64,000 nt of DNA from the NCBI GenBank assembly GCA_016296065.1, contig JAEDKA010000003.1, forward strand, positions 5,093-69,092, in the 5' to 3' direction. Both the position numbers and the translations under genes were made by a program. The notes below the pieces were generated by a model. It was not told the origin of the DNA. It worked only from the letters and a program-made list of their open reading frames with translations, and ran no database searches. The stretch's first letter is position 1; every line of letters starts with the position of its first letter. Positions 24,476 to 64,000 of this stretch are shown piece after piece. This DNA is from Kiritimatiellia bacterium (GTDB taxonomy: Bacteria; Verrucomicrobiota; Kiritimatiellia; RFP12; UBA1067).

Positions 24476-25675
24476 ATGAAAATGAACACAAAGAAGAATC
24501 ACAGCCACGTGTTTACGTCGGAGTCTGTTTCGGAAGGACATCCCGACAAGGTGGCGGACCAGATATCCGATGCAATCCTCGATGCGTGCATGAAGCGCGA
24601 CCCGAACGCCCATGTCGCGTGCGAAACAACGGTGGGGCCAGACATTGTAGTGAATGTCGGCGAAATCACCTGCAAAGACTTCAAGAAGATCGACATTGAA
24701 AAAATCGCCCGCCGCGTCGTCAGGAAGATCGGCTATACTGTGCCGGAAGAGAAATTCGCCGCCGACACGTTCAAATACCTCAACTACCTCCACGGACAGT
24801 CCCCAGACATCAACCAGGGCGTCTCTCGCGCGAAGAAGGAAAAGCAGGGGGCGGGAGACCAGGGGATGATGTTCGGCTACGCGACGAACGAGACGAAGTC
24901 CTACATGCCAGCCGCGATCGTCTATTCGCACGACCTCCTTAAGATGTTCGCGAAGCTCCGCAAGACGAACCCGAAGTACTCGTGGCTCCGCCCCGACTCG
25001 AAGAGCCAGCTCTCCGTCGTTTACGAAAACGGACGCCCCGTCGCGATAGACACCGTCGTCGTCTCGCATCAGACGACCGAGGATGGCGCGACTAAGAAGC
25101 ACTACGCCGAAATCGAAAATCTCGCGAAGGAATACCTTTCCAAGACCGGGCTCCTCACCACAAAGACGAAGTTCTTCATCAACCCGACGGGCAAGTTCGT
25201 CGTCGGCGGACCTTGCGGTGACTCCGGGCTCACCGGGCGCAAGATCATCGTCGACACGTATGGCGGAATGGCCGCGCACGGTGGCGGCGCATTCAGCGGA
25301 AAGGACCCCTCCAAGGTCGACCGCTCCGCCGCGTACTACGCGCGCTACGCCGCGAAGAACATCGTAGCCGCAGGCCTTGCGGACCGCTGCCAGATCCAGG
25401 TCGCCTACGCGATCGGCGTCGACAAGCCGGTCAGCTTCTGCGTCAAGACGTTCGATACCGCACACGGCGTGACGAACGAGCAGCTCGAGAAGATGCTAGC
25501 GTCCGGCAGGGTGTTCGACTTCCGCCCGTACGCGCTCATCAAGGACCTCGGGCTCCTCAAGCCGAAGGGCTGGAAATACGAGGACACGGCGGCCTACGGA
25601 CACTTCGGACGCTCCAAGTTCCCGTGGGAGAAGCTGGATAAGGTCGCAAAGATCAAAAGCTACCTCAAGGTTTGA
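24476..25675 (+). CDS. metK: S-adenosylmethionine synthetase
   Basis: [25 protein letters not shown] and [10 protein letters not shown] signatures. 399 aa. Confidence 0.95.
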
Positions 25676-56323: not shown

Positions 56324-57690
56324 GTAGCGAGCAAAACCGGAATGATTTTCATGCTCTCGCGGCGACCCAAGCTAATACAGCCGGGCTGTTTTGAAGGCCC
56401 GGCTGCCGCTTGGGCACCCCGCCGCGACACCTCTCCATTCAGTCACCGACTCCTGTACACCTTCGGATTGTTGGTGAACACCACCTTCGGCGACGTTCCC
56501 TTTTCCGGCTTGTTGAGCACGAGAGACACGGTTCCGTCAAGGTGCCGGCAGATCCACACGCGGGTTCCATTTGCGCATTCCGTCGAGCAGAGGAATCCGT
56601 CGACCAGCAACCGCCCGCGCGGCCCGATCGTCGAACCTTTCCATTCCGACCAGATCAGCTCCCACCATCCGTCCTGCGGGGGCTGACGCAGCTTGCACTG
56701 GCCCGACCTGATCTTGTCCGTCCAGACGTTCAGCGGCACGTCGTGAAGCTCACGGTGACGCTCGAACCCGTTGCGGTAGTCGACCAGGCAGTCCAGCTGT
56801 TCGTTTACCTCTTCAAGGGGAGTGTCTCCCGTAATGCCTTCCCTCGCCGCGTACGCCGGAAGCCTGTCCTGCCAGACCTGATGCACACGCTCGATCTTCC
56901 CCTTCGCCTCGGGCGTGTTCGCAAAGACGAAGGAGATGTCGACGAACTTCAGCCTCCTGCCGAGCTGGGTCAGCGACCCGTCGTCGTTCCTGAAGAAACC
57001 CGCCTTGTCCACGTAGATTTCCAGGGGGAGGCCGTATCTTGTGAAGGCTCTGTAGAACAAGTCCAGATACGACTCGACCGTCTCCCTCCGGTAGAGCCGG
57101 CAGCCGACCTGCATCCGGCTGCAGTCGTCAACCATGTCGATGAGCAGCAGAGCCTGGCAGGAGCGTCCGAGAAAGTAGTCGGGCGTCGCGTCCAGCTGCC
57201 ACAGCTCGCCGACCGACTTGCGCTGCCAGCGGCGGACGTGCGCCGGAGGCCGCGCCCTGTGGTCGGCCAGGTGGAGGTTGTGCGCAATGGCCCAGTGCCG
57301 GACCTGGGAGCGCTCTACGGGGAAGCCGAAGCGCCTCCCGACCTCGCTGGCGACAAACGCATACGAATACCGTTTCGCGTCGCCATCCGGCTCCAGTGCC
57401 CTGCGCAGGAACGACTGCACCTTGTCAGGCCACGCCGGCATGTGGTTGCCGCCGGACGAACCAGGCTCCCAGTCGTCGCCGAGCCCCTGAGCCCGTGCCG
57501 CGAGGTAGGACGTGCGCAGCGAATACAGCTGCGACTGCCCGACCTGAAGCGACTCCATCGCCTGCTGGCGGGTGATCGCTCCGGTTACGAACTGCATCAT
57601 CGTGTCTCGGACATGCGCGACACCCAGTCGGTTTGATATTTGCTGTTTCATGGAGCATAGTATACTCCACATTCCGGTTTTGCTCGCTAC
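56324..57690 (-). mobile_element. insertion sequence (1367 bp) with perfect 21-bp terminal inverted repeats and one DDE (rve) transposase
   Basis: GTAGCGAGCAAAACCGGAATG at 56324-56344 and its reverse complement at 57670-57690. I saw no clear target-site duplication. Confidence 0.75.
56443..57651 (-). CDS. DDE-type (rve integrase core) transposase
   Basis: WQLDATP, YVDKAGFF and KGKIER form the DDE triad context. Start trimmed to MKQQISN, 7 nt after a TATACT -10. Confidence 0.75.
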   Translation of the reverse strand: MKQQISNRLGVAHVRDTMMQFVTGAITRQQAMESLQVGQSQLYSLRTSYLAARAQGLGDDWEPGSSGGNHMPAWPDKVQSFLRRALEPDGDAKRYSYAFVASEVGRRFGFPVERSQVRHWAIAHNLHLADHRARPPAHVRRWQRKSVGELWQLDATPDYFLGRSCQALLLIDMVDDCSRMQVGCRLYRRETVESYLDLFYRAFTRYGLPLEIYVDKAGFFRNDDGSLTQLGRRLKFVDISFVFANTPEAKGKIERVHQVWQDRLPAYAAREGITGDTPLEEVNEQLDCLVDYRNGFERHRELHDVPLNVWTDKIRSGQCKLRQPPQDGWWELIWSEWKGSTIGPRGRLLVDGFLCSTECANGTRVWICRHLDGTVSLVLNKPEKGTSPKVVFTNNPKVYRSR

Positions 57691-57800
57691 ACCGAGACGG
57701 CCGCCCCCCATGGGGGGCGTATGGTTTTCTTAACTTTCAACAATCGCCATCTTTGAAGCAAAATCCCTCGCTGAAGCCCGCTTAACAGGCTCTCTCGCTC

Positions 57801-57981: not shown

Positions 57982-58596
57982 TCATACCTGGAAGAACAGT
58001 CCGTAGATTATGAATAGCACAAACACGATTGAGCAGATCAGCGCGAAACAACAGCCACGAAGGTCGTCTTCAGGACCGCGGCTCTCCCAATGTCCGCCCT
58101 GGGGTTGCCTCGCTCCGCCTCGGCTGGACGCACAAGCGTACGGGTAGTCGTCGTGTCCGTAATCGTCGTCAGCGCCGTAGTCCTCGTCATCTTCGTCGTC
58201 GTCCGAATCGTAGTCGTCGTCATCCCGCGAGCTGCCGAAGTTGTAGTCGCCGTCGGGCATCTCGCCGGAGTAGTACCTGTTGCGCTTCTTCAGCATCATC
58301 AAGGCGCCGTACTCGGATCCATCGCCGTCCCCGAACGAGTCCCCACGCGACATGCCGGTGCTTTCGTACGTCGGACCGATGAAGTTGCTTCCGTGCGCTT
58401 CGCCGACATAGTTGTGGTCGATGTCCCACAGCTTTCCGGAGGCGTCTATACGGCCCTGCCTGACGCCGCCATTGTCGTAGATGTCGTCCCCCTCGATCCG
58501 GCCGACATACTGGTGGTTTTCGTCATAGAGGCGGCCATCGTCGTCGATGCTCCCCTCGAAGTCGCTCATCCCGCGGAACAGATTTCTCTCGCTCAT
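57982..58596 (-). CDS. hypothetical tail-anchored protein with G-x-I/Y-D repeats and poly-acidic region (204 aa)
   Basis: Start trimmed to MSERNLF with a strong SD (AGGAGGAAAACAAAATG). C-terminal TM CCFALICSIVFVLFIIYGLFF. Confidence 0.6.
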   Translation of the reverse strand: MSERNLFRGMSDFEGSIDDDGRLYDENHQYVGRIEGDDIYDNGGVRQGRIDASGKLWDIDHNYVGEAHGSNFIGPTYESTGMSRGDSFGDGDGSEYGALMMLKKRNRYYSGEMPDGDYNFGSSRDDDDYDSDDDEDDEDYGADDDYGHDDYPYACASSRGGARQPQGGHWESRGPEDDLRGCCFALICSIVFVLFIIYGLFFQV

Positions 58597-58822
58597 TTTG
58601 TTTTCCTCCTGTTGTTTTCGTTGGCATAGAGGCCACCTGGAGCCGCAGAAACGCTGTCGCCCGTCTCTGCGCGGGACGGGCGACCTTCGGAACTTGTTTT
58701 CCCAAAAGGGCCCATCCTTTTTCCACCGCGGCGTTCCCGCTCGGTTGGCAGATGCGCTCCCGCACATCACTCTTGATGGTCTCAACACCGTATATTATAT
58801 CATATTGCTAATTCAGCCACAA
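58597..58822 (-). promoter_or_regulatory. sigma70-type promoter plus ~190-nt structured leader (copy A)
   Basis: TTGTGG (58817-58822), 17-nt spacer, TATAAT (58794-58799). P1 hairpin at 58751-58768 and terminator-like hairpin at 58656-58684. It is a near-duplicate of 61025-61254. Confidence 0.6.
58643..58684 (-). terminator. leader terminator-like hairpin, copy A (weak U tract)
   Basis: GUCGCCCGUC-9 nt-GACGGGCGAC followed by AGCGUUUCUG. Confidence 0.45.
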
Positions 58823-58889: not shown

Positions 58890-60335
58890 TCATGGTCCCA
58901 TCACATAAAAGCCATCAAAACATCTATCAGAGGCATCGCACTGCTCTATAAGCCACCATACGAAGAAATCAAGAAGTGCCAAAATCCGAAAACGGTTCTT
59001 CGACAACATTTCTCGCTTCGCTATTTCCATCTTCTCTTTATCCTCGTCCAAGGCAACTCTTTCACCGCTTGGGGATTCCCAGGCAAAGTCTGAATTTAGC
59101 AGCCTTTGCGAAATCTTGCCTAGAGCTGGATCGCAAGGATCTTTGATAATCTGCAACCGAACGACCTTGATTCGATCCAAAATCAGCCCGGCTTCCTCTT
59201 TACGGAAGTGGAATTTCTCGTAATAGTATTCGTAATAGTATGGAACAACGCTCTCGAAGATGGCAAGCAAAGGTTCTATCTTTTCTGCGTACATCAGAAA
59301 GACAGATCCGGTCTTCCATGCATCCCATCCCAAATTATCATCATCGTAAGCGTAAATCGCAAACTCTCTAGAACATCTCCCCGGATGACGCCCATAGATC
59401 ATGCCGAGATTCAACTTCTTCAACCTGCGCGAAATCCTGTAGCTGTCAACGAATCTATCGGCCGGGTTTCGCAAATCACCGCGCGTGCCAAACTTCTCGT
59501 CATAATACTGGCGCGAACGAGCCTCCGACTCCTCCCCCACACCCAATTTCCCGACGCCCCGTATCGCATGATAAAGGCTCATTCTGTGCAACAACTCAAG
59601 TTTGACCGCTCCATCCTCGATCCACCCCATGTACTGCGCCGACTTGCCAGGTCCTTCGACAACAAACCTGATCTTGTAGCGGACAGCCTTGCTTTCAACG
59701 ATAAAACATCCGTTCGCGCAATACAAGACCTCATCTCCCGAAAGAGCCGACCGCAAGACTTTATCAACAGTTTCCACCGCATCGGCAATGGATCCTCTCA
59801 ATATCATAATTGCGGTGTCAATTGTCGCATCATAATGGAAACATTCCCCCAAGCTGAAATACTTAGCCCATGCACAGCACTGACCGGGGGAAAGTGCTCG
59901 CCTCTTCCAAAGTGCAATCCTCAAACGCTGATGCGCAAGCCGAGCCAATACGAACCTTACGCGCTCGTCTTTGCTTATCTTCGTTGAACACCCCATCTCA
60001 GCGTCAAACAACTTCAGTCCATCATTCCCAAGGCATGTTTCAATCGCGAGGCACCTTGCAAGTACGTCCGCAACAAGCTGAGCATTTATGTATTCTGCCG
60101 TTACAGACACTAGAGGCAATCCAGGCTCTTGGCGAAATCTGAAGATAGGCTTCGATTTCGCAGATTCGCAAGACGAGGGGCGAAGCATCTTTGTCAGTCC
60201 GTCTAAATCAAACGGCGAGAAATCCTCTCGACAAATGTCAAGCGTCCCGCTTTCAACGTATGCACGAAGCGACCTTGAAATCATCACGTCAAAGCCAGGG
60301 AATCTCGGCTTACATATGTAGAATCGATAGCGCAT
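58890..60335 (-). CDS. hypothetical protein (481 aa), no recognisable domain
   Basis: AT-richer ORF. ATG 60335 is preceded by GGAG-ATAATC. The TTG at 60347 in the track is less likely. Confidence 0.6.
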   Translation of the reverse strand: MRYRFYICKPRFPGFDVMISRSLRAYVESGTLDICREDFSPFDLDGLTKMLRPSSCESAKSKPIFRFRQEPGLPLVSVTAEYINAQLVADVLARCLAIETCLGNDGLKLFDAEMGCSTKISKDERVRFVLARLAHQRLRIALWKRRALSPGQCCAWAKYFSLGECFHYDATIDTAIMILRGSIADAVETVDKVLRSALSGDEVLYCANGCFIVESKAVRYKIRFVVEGPGKSAQYMGWIEDGAVKLELLHRMSLYHAIRGVGKLGVGEESEARSRQYYDEKFGTRGDLRNPADRFVDSYRISRRLKKLNLGMIYGRHPGRCSREFAIYAYDDDNLGWDAWKTGSVFLMYAEKIEPLLAIFESVVPYYYEYYYEKFHFRKEEAGLILDRIKVVRLQIIKDPCDPALGKISQRLLNSDFAWESPSGERVALDEDKEKMEIAKREMLSKNRFRILALLDFFVWWLIEQCDASDRCFDGFYVMGP

Positions 60336-60359: not shown

Positions 60360-60590
60360 TTACATCAACACCTCGCCAGGCATCTTCAGATACCACACCT
60401 GCGTCTTGTACACGACGACCGTCATAGGCCCCGCCTTGATCGTCACAAAACCGTCCGAGTCGGGCTTAACGTACCCGATTTGAGAGTACTGCTGCCCGCC
60501 CGGCGTCTTGCAGAACGTCATCCAGTAGTCCGCCTTCGCAATGAGCGTTGCGGCAACCACCAATCCCGCAACCATAAGTTTTCTGATCAT
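60360..60590 (-). CDS. small secreted hypothetical protein (76 aa)
   Basis: Start trimmed to MIRKLMVAGLVVAATLIAKA (signal peptide), with an AGGAG SD. Confidence 0.5.
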   Translation of the reverse strand: MIRKLMVAGLVVAATLIAKADYWMTFCKTPGGQQYSQIGYVKPDSDGFVTIKAGPMTVVVYKTQVWYLKMPGEVLM

Positions 60591-60625
60591 GACACTCCTT
60601 TCCCGCTTTCTCTTAGCCGATTCGC

Positions 60626-61024
60626 TTACCGAGCTGTATCGCAATCGTCGTCGCAGAAATCCCAGTTCTTCAGGATGAACTGGCATTCCGGATCGCCATC
60701 CCGAAAATCAAGCACGGCAGGATGGTTGAAGTTCGCCACATAGCACTCCCCTTCTGACGATGCACCTCTGACGACATGGCAATAGTCGCCCATCTTCCCA
60801 AGCGCAAGGTCTTTGCCCGGCGGCAGGAGTCCTAGGGCATGGAAGAGCTCGTTGCATGTCTCTACGACAAGCCGCTCGTCCGTCTCGATCGGAATGCTGA
60901 CAAGGTATGCAAACGGATTCTCGCCGTCGTTGCAGAGGCTGGCACCCTCAATTTCGCTATTTCCGACGACGTCGCCGACGACATAGTCAATGTATTCATG
61001 CGCCTTAGGTGTTAGTTCCCTCAT
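60626..61024 (-). CDS. acidic Cys-containing hypothetical protein (132 aa)
   Basis: Start trimmed to MRELTPKAHEYI with SD AAAGGAGTAAGACTATG. It is the first gene after leader copy B. Confidence 0.55.
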   Translation of the reverse strand: MRELTPKAHEYIDYVVGDVVGNSEIEGASLCNDGENPFAYLVSIPIETDERLVVETCNELFHALGLLPPGKDLALGKMGDYCHVVRGASSEGECYVANFNHPAVLDFRDGDPECQFILKNWDFCDDDCDTAR

Positions 61025-61254
61025 AGTCTTACTCCTTTCGTTTTTGGTTTTCTGTTGTAACCGCCAAGAGCCTCCGCAAAAAACGATGTCGCCCGTCTCT
61101 GCGCGGGACGGGCGACCTTCGGAACTTGTTTTCCCCAAAGGGCCCATCCCTTTTCCACCGTGGCGTTCCCGCTCGGTTGGCAGATGCGCTCCCGCGCATC
61201 ACTCTTCATGGTCTTGATGGTGAATATTATATCATATTGCTGATTCAGCCGCAA
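61025..61254 (-). promoter_or_regulatory. sigma70-type promoter plus ~190-nt structured leader with intrinsic terminator (copy B)
   Basis: TTGCGG (61249-61254), 17-nt spacer, TATAAT (61226-61231). P1 hairpin GAUGCGC-GGGA-GCGCAUC at 61183-61200. Terminator at 61078-61116. Confidence 0.65.
61078..61116 (-). terminator. intrinsic terminator inside leader copy B
   Basis: 10-bp perfect stem GUCGCCCGUC / GACGGGCGAC (61088-61116), then AUCGUUUUUUG. Confidence 0.65.
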
Positions 61255-61292
61255 GGGGGTTCGGGAAATTATTTGCGGGCGCGCCGGGGTAT

Positions 61293-61548: not shown

Positions 61549-64000
61549 TCACGAAAACTCAGCACGTGAGAATCCGAGATTGTTGCAGTTTTCGCTAACT
61601 GTGCGGACGACAATCGGAGTAAATGGATTTACGTTTTTTGCCTCAATCGACAACGTGACCTTTACATTGGCACCTGAAGCTGAAAGATGGGAAATAACTT
61701 CATCCACGATTTCTCCGATTCTTGATGATCCATGCGAAACATCAACGCGAGCTTCACCGATAAACTTTCGCTTTGCAGCCGTCGGCAATGATGCAGGCTT
61801 GCCCCCTGGGCCGATTCCTTGCCCTTGTCCACCATTGATTGCGTCTCCAGAGCCACCTGCGAGGTTGCCGGGGCCATCATCGATGACATCATCTGAAGTT
61901 ATATCGCCCGTTAACGATGCTTTATATTCAGCTGCTTCCTTGTCTCTGACAATCAGCTCATTGTCAGAGACGCCTATTGCCATTGGGTTATCCCCAAACG
62001 CAAATACCGAATAACAGCCATCCTCCCCTTTGTCGCGGGCATAGCCAAACAAACCAGAAGCAACGCCCTGTCTTACTGTCTCGCAAAACGCCGCTGCCGA
62101 AACAAGTCTGCTGAAGTACAGGTACGAGGCCATATCCTGCCATATCTTGCGCGTCGACACTTCATGGCATCCATTCTTGAAGTAATATTGCGCAAGATCG
62201 GATTTCATGAAACGTGGCGCCCAAACCCGCAAAATGTCTTCGTTATCTTCCAATGTCTTGCAAACAGCGTCGCCAAGAAGTGACACACTTGCCACATTCA
62301 TCTTTCGGACGACAAATCCGATATCATTCCCCGCCTGCTCGGGCACCAACAGATATTTGAAGCACTCGCAGATCAAACCCCTCAGCATTGTATCGCTCTG
62401 CGCGATAAAGGCCTGTACCTGGGCATCCTCCTGCTTGGTGACATTGATTGACCCGCCCATTATAGCATCCCTCACTGCGCGCCACGCAAGCAGCGTGCGG
62501 CATTGATCTTCAATGCGTCCGACCATGCTCAAATCGGCCGCCAAAAAGACAAGTCTGTTTTTCCTCATACGCGCGACCGTTCCGCATTTGTTGACATATA
62601 CTCGTGCAGCATCAAACGTATGGCTCTCCGTCGCCTTCGAATACGACGAGACCAACGGGAGCACCACAACACGTACGCCTTCCACAATGTCATCAGGCAC
62701 TTCACCATCATCTGCAAACACATGCAACCCAGCGATACAGCTGGGCGAACCCCACTTGTTCTTCAGAGCCATCTCGAGGGCTTCTCTGACATCTTTCTGC
62801 TTGATGCGCCCCTTATACTCATTCATTGTCCTAGATAAATTAGGACGTGTATCATACCAGTAGCGGTCGTCGCTGGAGAACAGATATTGCAGTCTCTCGC
62901 GCATCTTGTGAAGTGCATCCTCGTAGAATGAAAGTTCCTGCCCGGGAATGGCACACCCAAGAAGTATCTGCTTACGGGCTATGCCTCTAACAGTCTGCTC
63001 GGCGGTGGACGCAGCACTTCCAATGAAAATCGTCCGTGCAACTCGAACCGCCGCATGAAGCGCCCCAAGATGTGGATCGCTGACGTCAATTCGAACTGGC
63101 TGTGACTCCACGCCGTCAATTTCTCTATCAATGATAACGCCCCATCCATTCGGGAGAAACTGCGTGGACTTGTTCGCTACCGCCGTGTCGCACAGCGGAA
63201 TCGACGCTGGCATGATCAGCGGTTCATCGCTACCTGTCTTCCACTGGCTGTTGATCACGATCGCCATGTACTGCAACACGCCGCGCGTCTTCTGGAAGTT
63301 TGGCAAAGTCGACCAGTCCTCGTAAAGACGAATAAACACCTCTGGATGGATAGGATAGCACTGCCGCATTCTATCCGTCCAGATTCCCTCCTGGATATAA
63401 GGAGGCAGCGAGTCCCGTTTTTCGTGATAGTAGGATGCAAATTCCTGACAGGTTTCCTCTACAGCCGCAGTATCTTCAATCTTCTCGAAAAGACGGCGTT
63501 TTACGATTTCAAAGCCCTCTTCTGCCGTGACAGGCCTCCATATCGCATTGACGCGACCGAATGTTTTTTCCAAAGTCACAAGCGCCGTGCGCCCGAATGT
63601 ACCGGCAGCCTCCGTGTCAGAACTCGGAAGCGATACGAGCATCATTGCCTGTGGCGCGCTCTTCACAGCCTCTGTCAAGGCCTGCGCAAAAGATATATTG
63701 CTTTCATACGTCCCGCCTGCCAAAGCGCCGCCAGATCCGAACTGGCGATAATACGACACAAGTTCGTCCATCAAGACAACACAAGGCCCTGCATCTTTCA
63801 AAAGTGACTCCAAAATCCCCTTCCCCGGCGAGGTTCCCGCTGCATCGCTGTCCGCAACCTTTGCGTATCCTTCAGGCCCAAGGAGCTGCCATGCCAGGTT
63901 TCCCCAAAGCGTTCTTATTGAAAGTCCGCCTTGCTTCAATGGCTGGTTGGGCGCCAGAGCATTGCCGTCTATTACCGCCACTCTCGCGTGCGGGACACTC
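61549..64000 (-). CDS. DUF499-type (BrxC/PglY-like) ATPase, 5' end outside the window
   Basis: The ORF is open to the right edge, with no stop upstream of the listed GTG at 63981. GPCVVLMDELVSYY is Walker-B-like. LWGNLAWQLLGPEGYAKV and the overall length fit my recollection of DUF499. Confidence 0.55.
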   Translation of the reverse strand, partial: SVPHARVAVIDGNALAPNQPLKQGGLSIRTLWGNLAWQLLGPEGYAKVADSDAAGTSPGKGILESLLKDAGPCVVLMDELVSYYRQFGSGGALAGGTYESNISFAQALTEAVKSAPQAMMLVSLPSSDTEAAGTFGRTALVTLEKTFGRVNAIWRPVTAEEGFEIVKRRLFEKIEDTAAVEETCQEFASYYHEKRDSLPPYIQEGIWTDRMRQCYPIHPEVFIRLYEDWSTLPNFQKTRGVLQYMAIVINSQWKTGSDEPLIMPASIPLCDTAVANKSTQFLPNGWGVIIDREIDGVESQPVRIDVSDPHLGALHAAVRVARTIFIGSAASTAEQTVRGIARKQILLGCAIPGQELSFYEDALHKMRERLQYLFSSDDRYWYDTRPNLSRTMNEYKGRIKQKDVREALEMALKNKWGSPSCIAGLHVFADDGEVPDDIVEGVRVVVLPLVSSYSKATESHTFDAARVYVNKCGTVARMRKNRLVFLAADLSMVGRIEDQCRTLLAWRAVRDAIMGGSINVTKQEDAQVQAFIAQSDTMLRGLICECFKYLLVPEQAGNDIGFVVRKMNVASVSLLGDAVCKTLEDNEDILRVWAPRFMKSDLAQYYFKNGCHEVSTRKIWQDMASYLYFSRLVSAAAFCETVRQGVASGLFGYARDKGEDGCYSVFAFGDNPMAIGVSDNELIVRDKEAAEYKASLTGDITSDDVIDDGPGNLAGGSGDAINGGQGQGIGPGGKPASLPTAAKRKFIGEARVDVSHGSSRIGEIVDEVISHLSASGANVKVTLSIEAKNVNPFTPIVVRTVSENCNNLGFSRAEFS

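Follow-up and report, generated by a model that had tools for sequence, protein, structure and literature searches.

A duplicated SAM-I/IV riboswitch module, predicted to act as a SAM-OFF attenuator, precedes uncharacterised defence-island genes in a Kiritimatiellia bacterium

The SAM-I-IV riboswitch variant was first described by Weinberg et al. 2010 (PMC2864571), and PMC6890682 credits the crystal structure of the env87 SAM-I/IV aptamer to Trausch et al. 2014. SAM-I/IV RNAs are told from SAM-I and SAM-IV by an unsplit P2 without internal loop or PK-1, by a 3' hairpin and by the pseudoknot PK-2 (PMC2864571, PMC6890682). SAM-I (S-box, RF00162) and SAM-IV (RF00634), both in clan CL00012, have a ligand-binding core in common with the leader described here. 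In SAM-I, unlike in this leader, P2 contains a K-turn and PK-1 and the junction is four-way, with P4; in SAM-IV, P2 is split into P2a and P2b, with PK-1.

The window, a 64-kb stretch of DNA analysed over its whole length, carries on its minus strand a leader that the original prediction had presented as unclassified. Rfam cmscan of the entire window returned exactly two matches above the gathering score of 41.1, both to SAM-I/IV (RF01725) and both on the minus strand. One of them covers this leader, which rules out an unclassified riboswitch. Both copies span the full model and are not truncated; they were the sole RF01725 matches in the 3.7-Mb genome, and 14 control genomes gave zero RF01725 matches. 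SAM-I proper was rejected for the leader, as a genome-wide search gave no RF00162 match. The elements discussed first are the following:

61226..61254, minus strand: promoter A, with -35 TTGCGG at 61254-61249, a 17-nt spacer and the extended -10 TGATATAAT at 61234-61226
61117-61216, minus strand: SAM-I/IV aptamer, copy A (RF01725, 49.9 bits, E = 3.6e-5, model positions 1-99 of 99)
61037-61032, minus strand: Shine-Dalgarno sequence AAGGAG of ORF1, whose start lies at 61024
58685-58784, minus strand: SAM-I/IV aptamer, copy B (RF01725, 50.4 bits, E = 2.9e-5), with a canonical 5-bp P1

Promoter A was located on the minus strand where the original prediction had placed it, with the -10 TATAAT at 61231-61226 and the TG of the extended -10 at 61234-61233, and transcription is expected to start near 61219. 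It was not listed by a simple consensus promoter scan because its -35 fits only 3/6 consensus positions. The same UP-like AAAATTT tract, -35 and TGATATA(A/C)T (TGATATAAT) also precede homologous leaders in sister genomes. Folding of the copy A leader was more stable than that of shuffled sequences (z = -3.5), none of 200 shuffles being equally stable, and we agree with the original prediction that there is no obvious leader peptide.

The hairpin GAUGCGC-GGGA-GCGCAUC, originally labelled P1, was found at 61200-61183, but this 7-bp helix is P2, and it contains no internal loop, K-turn or PK-1. P1 itself is formed by 61211-61207 with 61148-61144 (CCAU(G)/GAUGG), P3 spans 61181-61155 and a 3' hairpin (GGCCC-UUUG-GGG) occupies 61143-61133. 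The segments GGAAC (61169-61165), in the P3 loop, and GUUCC (61125-61121), in the 3' tail, had been read as a stem enclosing a small hairpin; both the pairing and the hairpin are present, but their identity is that of PK-2 plus the 3' hairpin. All three features that define SAM-I/IV were found in the leader, which we consider to be a new example of this curated class and ordinary as an RNA. The binding core, made of P1 CAUC/GAUG, J1/2 AAGAG and P3 CCAACC...GGUGG, was present in both copies and invariant in 21 aligned relatives, metK-linked ones included, with one exception: at the innermost P1 pair (window position 61207), copy A carries G, where copy B, the orthologs in genomes G257 and G243 and 20 of the 21 aligned relatives carry C. 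In copy A, the G at 61207 thus faces another G, and this G.G mismatch may make SAM binding weaker or the switch leakier.

Since the covariance model cannot score PK-2, this pseudoknot provides independent support for the assignment to SAM-I/IV. PK-2 varied in a compensatory manner among relatives (GGAAC/GUUCC, GGAAG/CUUCC, GAAAC/GUUUC, GAGAAC/GUUCUC, CGAAC/GUUCG and UGAAC/GUUCA). In the alignment of 21 sequences, 88% of the cells in P1 and PK-2 were paired, as compared with 22-46% when the partners were slid. Changes on both sides of a pair were counted in 13 cells of the same alignment, a number matched by 0/500 shuffles.

Downstream of the aptamer, the leader contains two structures that use the same sequences:

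61078..61121, minus strand: intrinsic terminator A, with the stem GUCGCCCGUC/GACGGGCGAC at 61116-61088, a CGA/UCG extension and U6 at 61083-61078
61105..61150, minus strand: antiterminator A (predicted, SAM-free), pairing GGGAUGGGCCCUUUGGGG at 61150-61133 with UUCCGAAGG at 61124-61116 and GCCCGUCCC at 61113-61105

The intrinsic terminator with a run of six U residues anticipated by the original prediction was found; its hairpin is GC-rich and 10 bp long (-24.2 kcal/mol), with AUCG between stem and U6. Across the modules found in the window's genus, the position of the terminator hairpin was constant and the sequence of its stem changed compensatorily (GUCGCCCGUC/GACGGGCGAC, GCCGCUCGUCUUG/CAAGAUGGGCGGC, GUCGCGCGUC/GAUGCGCGAC and CCACCAGU/ACUGGUGG). 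The predicted antiterminator, in which GGGAUGGGC and the terminator left arm take part, ties up the P1 3' strand, the 3' hairpin, the PK-2 3' strand and the left arm of the terminator. For the full leader, both the minimum free energy (MFE) fold and the centroid fold contained it and retained P2 and P3, and the segment alone folded at -28.3 kcal/mol. A pairing between the P1 3' strand, (G/A)GAUG, and the terminator left arm, CGUC(CC/UU), occurred in most homologous modules. The broader claim that the leader is a riboswitch with a competing terminator and antiterminator agrees with these computed and conserved structures, which fit an OFF switch, the conserved pairing being the one that uses the P1 3' strand.

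We therefore propose, with a probability of roughly 0.85, that the leader is a SAM-I/IV riboswitch acting as a SAM-OFF transcription attenuator; within this reading we infer that SAM is bound, that transcription does terminate and that SAM turns expression off. The SAM-bound aptamer would be kept closed by P1, the 3' hairpin and PK-2; the GC-rich hairpin downstream and U6 would then form, and transcription would end ahead of ORF1. Under low SAM, an 18-bp antiterminator would instead join the terminator left arm to the P1 3' strand, the 3' hairpin and the PK-2 3' strand, and RNA polymerase would continue into ORF1-ORF2-ORF3. A second promoter-riboswitch-hairpin module, built around copy B, would gate ORF4:

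58794..58822, minus strand: promoter B, with -35 TTGTGG at 58822-58817, a 17-nt spacer and -10 TATAAT at 58799-58794
58646..58684, minus strand: terminator-like hairpin B, with the same stem as in A and the weak tail AGCGUUUCUG (-23.3 kcal/mol)

Modules A and B shared ~97% identity over the span that opens with the -35 and closes with the hairpin; the sequences outside this span were unrelated. In the orthologous locus of genome G257, the same riboswitch A leads to ORF1-ORF2 and then directly to a homolog of ORF4. In the window and in the 96%-related metagenome contig L035, ORF3 and the second module sit between ORF2 and ORF4. As the operon of G257 has no ORF3, ORF3 is an insertion relative to that genome, and ORF4 would have retained its SAM control through the duplicated leader.

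The strongest competitor of the attenuator model is that both copies are decaying relics of SAM riboswitches, with RNAs that no longer switch and promoters that drive the cargo roughly constitutively. The G.G of copy A at a near-invariant C-G pair would fit such decay. Poor U-tracts were also found in copy B and in several relatives (GCGUUUCUG, GCGUUUGCGG), which makes the efficiency of termination uncertain. In L035, riboswitch B was kept (48.1 bits) and its terminator (L035 2390-2440) had two uncompensated mismatches, suggesting that the copy B hairpin may be degenerating in that lineage. Moreover, homologs of ORF1, ORF3 and ORF4 function elsewhere without a riboswitch. We nevertheless hold decay to be improbable, since both copies score ~50 bits across the whole model, and changes in PK-2, P2 and the terminator are compensatory rather than random across modules. 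The near identity of the two copies and their conservation in G257, G243 and L035 also argue for purifying selection.

The genes placed under the two switches, all on the minus strand, are listed below:

60626..61024, minus strand: ORF1, 132 aa, acidic, the first gene after riboswitch A
60360..60686, minus strand: ORF2, small and secreted-looking
58890..60335, minus strand: ORF3, 481 aa, with a weak likeness to Pol-beta-type nucleotidyltransferases
57982..58596, minus strand: ORF4, 204 aa (beta-flower-like repeats, poly-acidic linker, C-terminal TM helix)

The description of the downstream cassette as one of unknown proteins was borne out: ORF1-ORF4 had no assignment above cut-off in Pfam, NCBIfam, PADLOC or PHROGs, and none to SAM or methionine metabolism in these collections. 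The absence of SAM-metabolism cargo is atypical for RF01725; it breaks a contextual expectation, not a structural criterion. ORF1 matched nothing in Pfam, NCBIfam, PADLOC or PHROGs, and its family comprises 12 clusters. Its AF2 model (pLDDT 83) found nothing better than E = 0.08 among PDB folds. Elsewhere, homologs of ORF1 lie 33-56 nt 3' of type I hsdMSR, SLFN/AlbA_2 or SWI2/SNF2 helicase genes, often with homologs of ORF2 and ORF4 and with no riboswitch. The start of ORF2 is probably at MIRKL (60590), giving a protein of ~76 aa, and homologs were found in L087, L035, L043 and L090. ORF4 is the sole gene behind riboswitch B; it matched Pfam Bflower_2 at E = 1.9e-7, under the curated cut-off, and its homologs accompany those of ORF1 in L043, L044 and L087. 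The ORF1/ORF2/ORF4 homologs recur as a trio or a pair (L043 6337-9184, L044 2143-3160, L045 3362-3748 and L087 309-1335), and those of L043 adjoin an integrase.

The sequence of ORF3 had no match in Pfam, NCBIfam, PADLOC, PHROGs or the PDB sequences, and its homologs, which form ~25 clusters from rumen and gut metagenomes, are all hypothetical. Foldseek searches with its AF2 model (pLDDT 88) returned CdnB, DncV, CdnE/G, OAS and the CCA-adding enzyme as top matches, all of them nucleotidyltransferases of the Pol-beta type, with E-values down to 2e-4 but TM scores of only ~0.2; a search of the viral structure library with the same model returned nothing. Residues D111 and E113 of a D-x-E motif are invariant and D173 is near-invariant, all of them on strands, but the G[GS] of the G[GS]...[DE]h[DE]h catalytic motif was not found at the expected place. 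D111, E113 and D173 are a candidate acidic triad of ORF3. Neighbourhoods of ORF3 homologs contained Kinase-PolyVal, RlaP, ADP_ribosyl_GH, Sel1/AAA, type I R-M and DUF932/ImpB genes. Two ideas about the history of the locus were rejected: co-travelling of the riboswitch with its cargo, as distant and mid-distance homologs of ORF1 and ORF3 had no nearby riboswitch, and a phage or plasmid origin of the module or of ORF3, for which phage and plasmid collections gave no match.

The cassettes begin 295 nt past the stop codon of a defence gene, which runs past the end of the window:

61549..64000, minus strand: HmaC AAA+ ATPase (DUF499), running past the window end (PADLOC HmaC, E = 1e-275)

HmaC is the final gene of an Hma (helicase-methylase-ATPase) defence operon, on the same strand and directly upstream of the cassettes. 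Further upstream on the same strand (L039) are an HmaB methylase (PADLOC E = 0), a DUF4420 gene and a Z1 helicase. On the other side, an IS element with an rve-type transposase (window 56443-57711) directly follows ORF4; another gene occupies this place in L035. A second SLFN/AlbA_2 gene and a PD-(D/E)XK gene are found on this side as well.

SAM-I/IV was the sole Rfam riboswitch family on SAM-related leaders in this genome, where it is found on island cargo only and not on metK. The housekeeping metK (window 24476-25675, plus strand) has a leader of ~420 nt (from 24054 on) that gave no Rfam riboswitch match at E <= 1; relatives in other genera, unlike this genome, place SAM-I/IV on metK. A second MetK is encoded ~12 kb further upstream on the island, beyond the window:

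L039 11792-16393 (contig C73 80791-85392), minus strand: accessory MetK operon

This operon encodes a MoxR-like AAA_5 ATPase (503 aa), a 467-aa protein that carries a HELYH motif, and a divergent paralog of MetK (387 aa) in which the three Pfam domains of MetK are all present. No riboswitch was detected ahead of it in this genome at E <= 1. Genome G270 carries the same three-gene operon (73-75% identity) behind a SAM-I/IV riboswitch, and the riboswitch-AAA_5-467-aa arrangement was found in four other genera too.

Within the window's genus, we counted 19 modules in 12 genomes, ahead of ~12 unrelated first-gene families and in no case (0/19) ahead of the housekeeping metK. Later genes of these cassettes included DUF3990, microbial PARG, ADP-ribosylglycohydrolase and HIRAN genes as well as HigBA-like and Phd/VapC-like pairs, the toxin-antitoxin assignments being made by inspection. 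The genus modules have in common a UP-like tract, a promoter, an aptamer, a hairpin and a 5'UTR that extends to the Shine-Dalgarno sequence. As all of these parts are shared, the cassette as a whole is a portable unit, and both modules of the window would represent such a cassette, inducible by low SAM and reaching from the UP-like tract through the Shine-Dalgarno sequence. Among 131 ORFs from the 171 kb that surround the genus modules, N6_Mtase was the commonest Pfam family (5 ORFs), followed by Type_ISP_C (3), SLFN_AlbA_2 (3) and Methylase_S (2); NgoPII plus a C5 methylase, HipA_C and ADP_ribosyl_GH were also found. PADLOC reported Type IIG (3), Type I (2), PDC-S01 (2) and mad5 (2) in the same neighbourhoods. 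Genus-wide, ~95 N6_Mtase matches in 93.6 Mb give an expectation of ~0.17 in 171 kb against 5 observed, a ~29-fold excess that is a rough figure, as the counts come from different methods and some loci are homologous to each other. In two loci (L094 and L041), the module directly follows a co-oriented Type ISP gene, like the arrangement with HmaC.

At the level of the order, RF01725 matches were found in 53/319 genomes, 47 of them above the gathering score, and copies A and B (~50 bits) were among the better scores. Many of these matches precede metK, as is canonical (L015, L019, L023, L024, L058, L067/L068, L079-L084, most sampled loci of genus g39 and two of genus g42). Further matches lie ahead of the accessory-MetK operon, of a sigma-70-family gene (genus g15) or of a 278-aa family. 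The metK leaders of g39 and g42 (L079-L084, L060 and L061) had no PK-2 complement in their 3' tails, and their aptamers adjoin the start codon, which suggests that they use another platform, a translational one. In g15 (L069, L071, L074 and L075), the aptamer sits directly on the start codon of a sigma-70-family protein of ~200 aa. In other genera (L016, L065, L066, L022 and L070) the aptamer lies ahead of the family of 270-278 aa, and these targets are non-metabolic.

The island cargo, unrelated to methionine or SAM biosynthesis, would be accounted for if the island aptamers had drifted to another ligand, for example SAH or a different nucleotide of the adenosyl-sulfur type or derived from SAM. 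Ligand switching inside one riboswitch fold has precedents in other families, and these lend the idea some weight. We rate it as quite improbable, less so only than the last alternative below, because the junction and P3 core are the same in metK-linked and cargo-linked aptamers of the order, with CAUCAAGAG, CCAACCG, CGGUGG and GGAUG identical between island leaders and metK-linked relatives. In addition, modules in sister genomes gate the operon that ends in the MetK paralog, which fits SAM as the ligand. The last alternative, an unclassified attenuator whose antiterminator would be formed by GCGCGGGA (5' arm and loop of P2) and UCCCGCGC (terminator loop), deserves next to no credence: its complementarity is real, extends to a perfect 9 nt in copy A (UGCGCGGGA/UCCCGCGCA) and is kept in copy B with one G.U, but a match of the 8-9 nt stressed originally is not beyond chance (at least one perfect 8-bp complement in 16% of dinucleotide shuffles), the pairing is missing from the MFE and centroid folds, it is lost uncompensated in the orthologous leaders L047 and L050 because P2 changed there (to GUGCGAGA and GUGCGAAA, respectively, both still self-paired) and the terminator loop did not, and it is also missing in L020 and in other modules with a different P2 and loop.

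Taking the SAM-OFF attenuator as the preferred reading, the value of the leader lies in the genes controlled rather than in the class of RNA. The switch marks a set of uncharacterised island proteins as low-SAM-induced, if this reading holds, and offers an experimentally simple handle on them. In the genus, the cassette is reused beside SAM-dependent restriction and methylase systems, toxin-antitoxin pairs and ADP-ribose-processing enzymes, and a low-SAM regulon on defence islands is an interesting lead. The SAM lyase of phage T3 defeats Type I R-M and BREX through SAM destruction and MetK inhibition (10.1101/2023.02.27.530186). We tentatively suggest, as a possibility that is more doubtful than not, that a defence-island regulon responding to low SAM has the SAM-I/IV modules as its sensor arm and guards a metabolite targeted by phages. 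The Hma, Type I and Type ISP/IIG systems next to the modules need SAM and would be disarmed by its loss to a phage, and the adjacent SAM-OFF switch would then turn on back-up genes as the first line fails. The back-up would be the accessory MetK operon in sister genomes and, here, the putatively membrane-associated ORF1-ORF2-ORF4 trio together with the nucleotidyltransferase-like ORF3. This suggestion is in line with the R-M enrichment and with the accessory MetK operon that this switch precedes in sister genomes, and neither is proof; simple induction of mobile-island genes by starvation or in stationary phase is an equally good fit. No paper that combines the terms SAM riboswitch and defense island turned up in a full-text literature search. 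If true, the suggestion would amount to an RNA-based guard of a metabolite targeted by phages.

Compared with known systems, the leader shares with the SAM-I/IV class a SAM-I-like core, the unsplit P2, the 3' hairpin, PK-2 and, by prediction, the OFF-switch architecture. Many relatives have an optional P4 insertion between P3 and the P1 3' strand, which copies A and B do not have. The predicted terminator/antiterminator logic is that of SAM-I and SAM-IV, in which the P1 3' strand also doubles as a part of the antiterminator. Likewise, the classical S-box logic, by which SAM stabilises P1 and PK-2 and so frees the terminator, matches the predicted platform. The metK-linked SAM-I/IV leaders of the order belong to the same family with the same core sequences, and intrinsic terminators occur in some of them (L023 and L024); they differ from the present leader in sitting on the gene for the housekeeping SAM synthetase, whose start codon often follows the aptamer immediately, an abutment that suggests translational control. 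The family is usually found on metK, ahcY and methionine genes, whereas copies A and B are on island proteins, and two near-identical aptamers 2.4 kb apart are unlike typical SAM-I/IV. As for the Hma system described in PADLOC-DB, HmaB and HmaC have their counterparts at this locus, and the riboswitch-gated genes lie outside the described Hma set, with promoters of their own.
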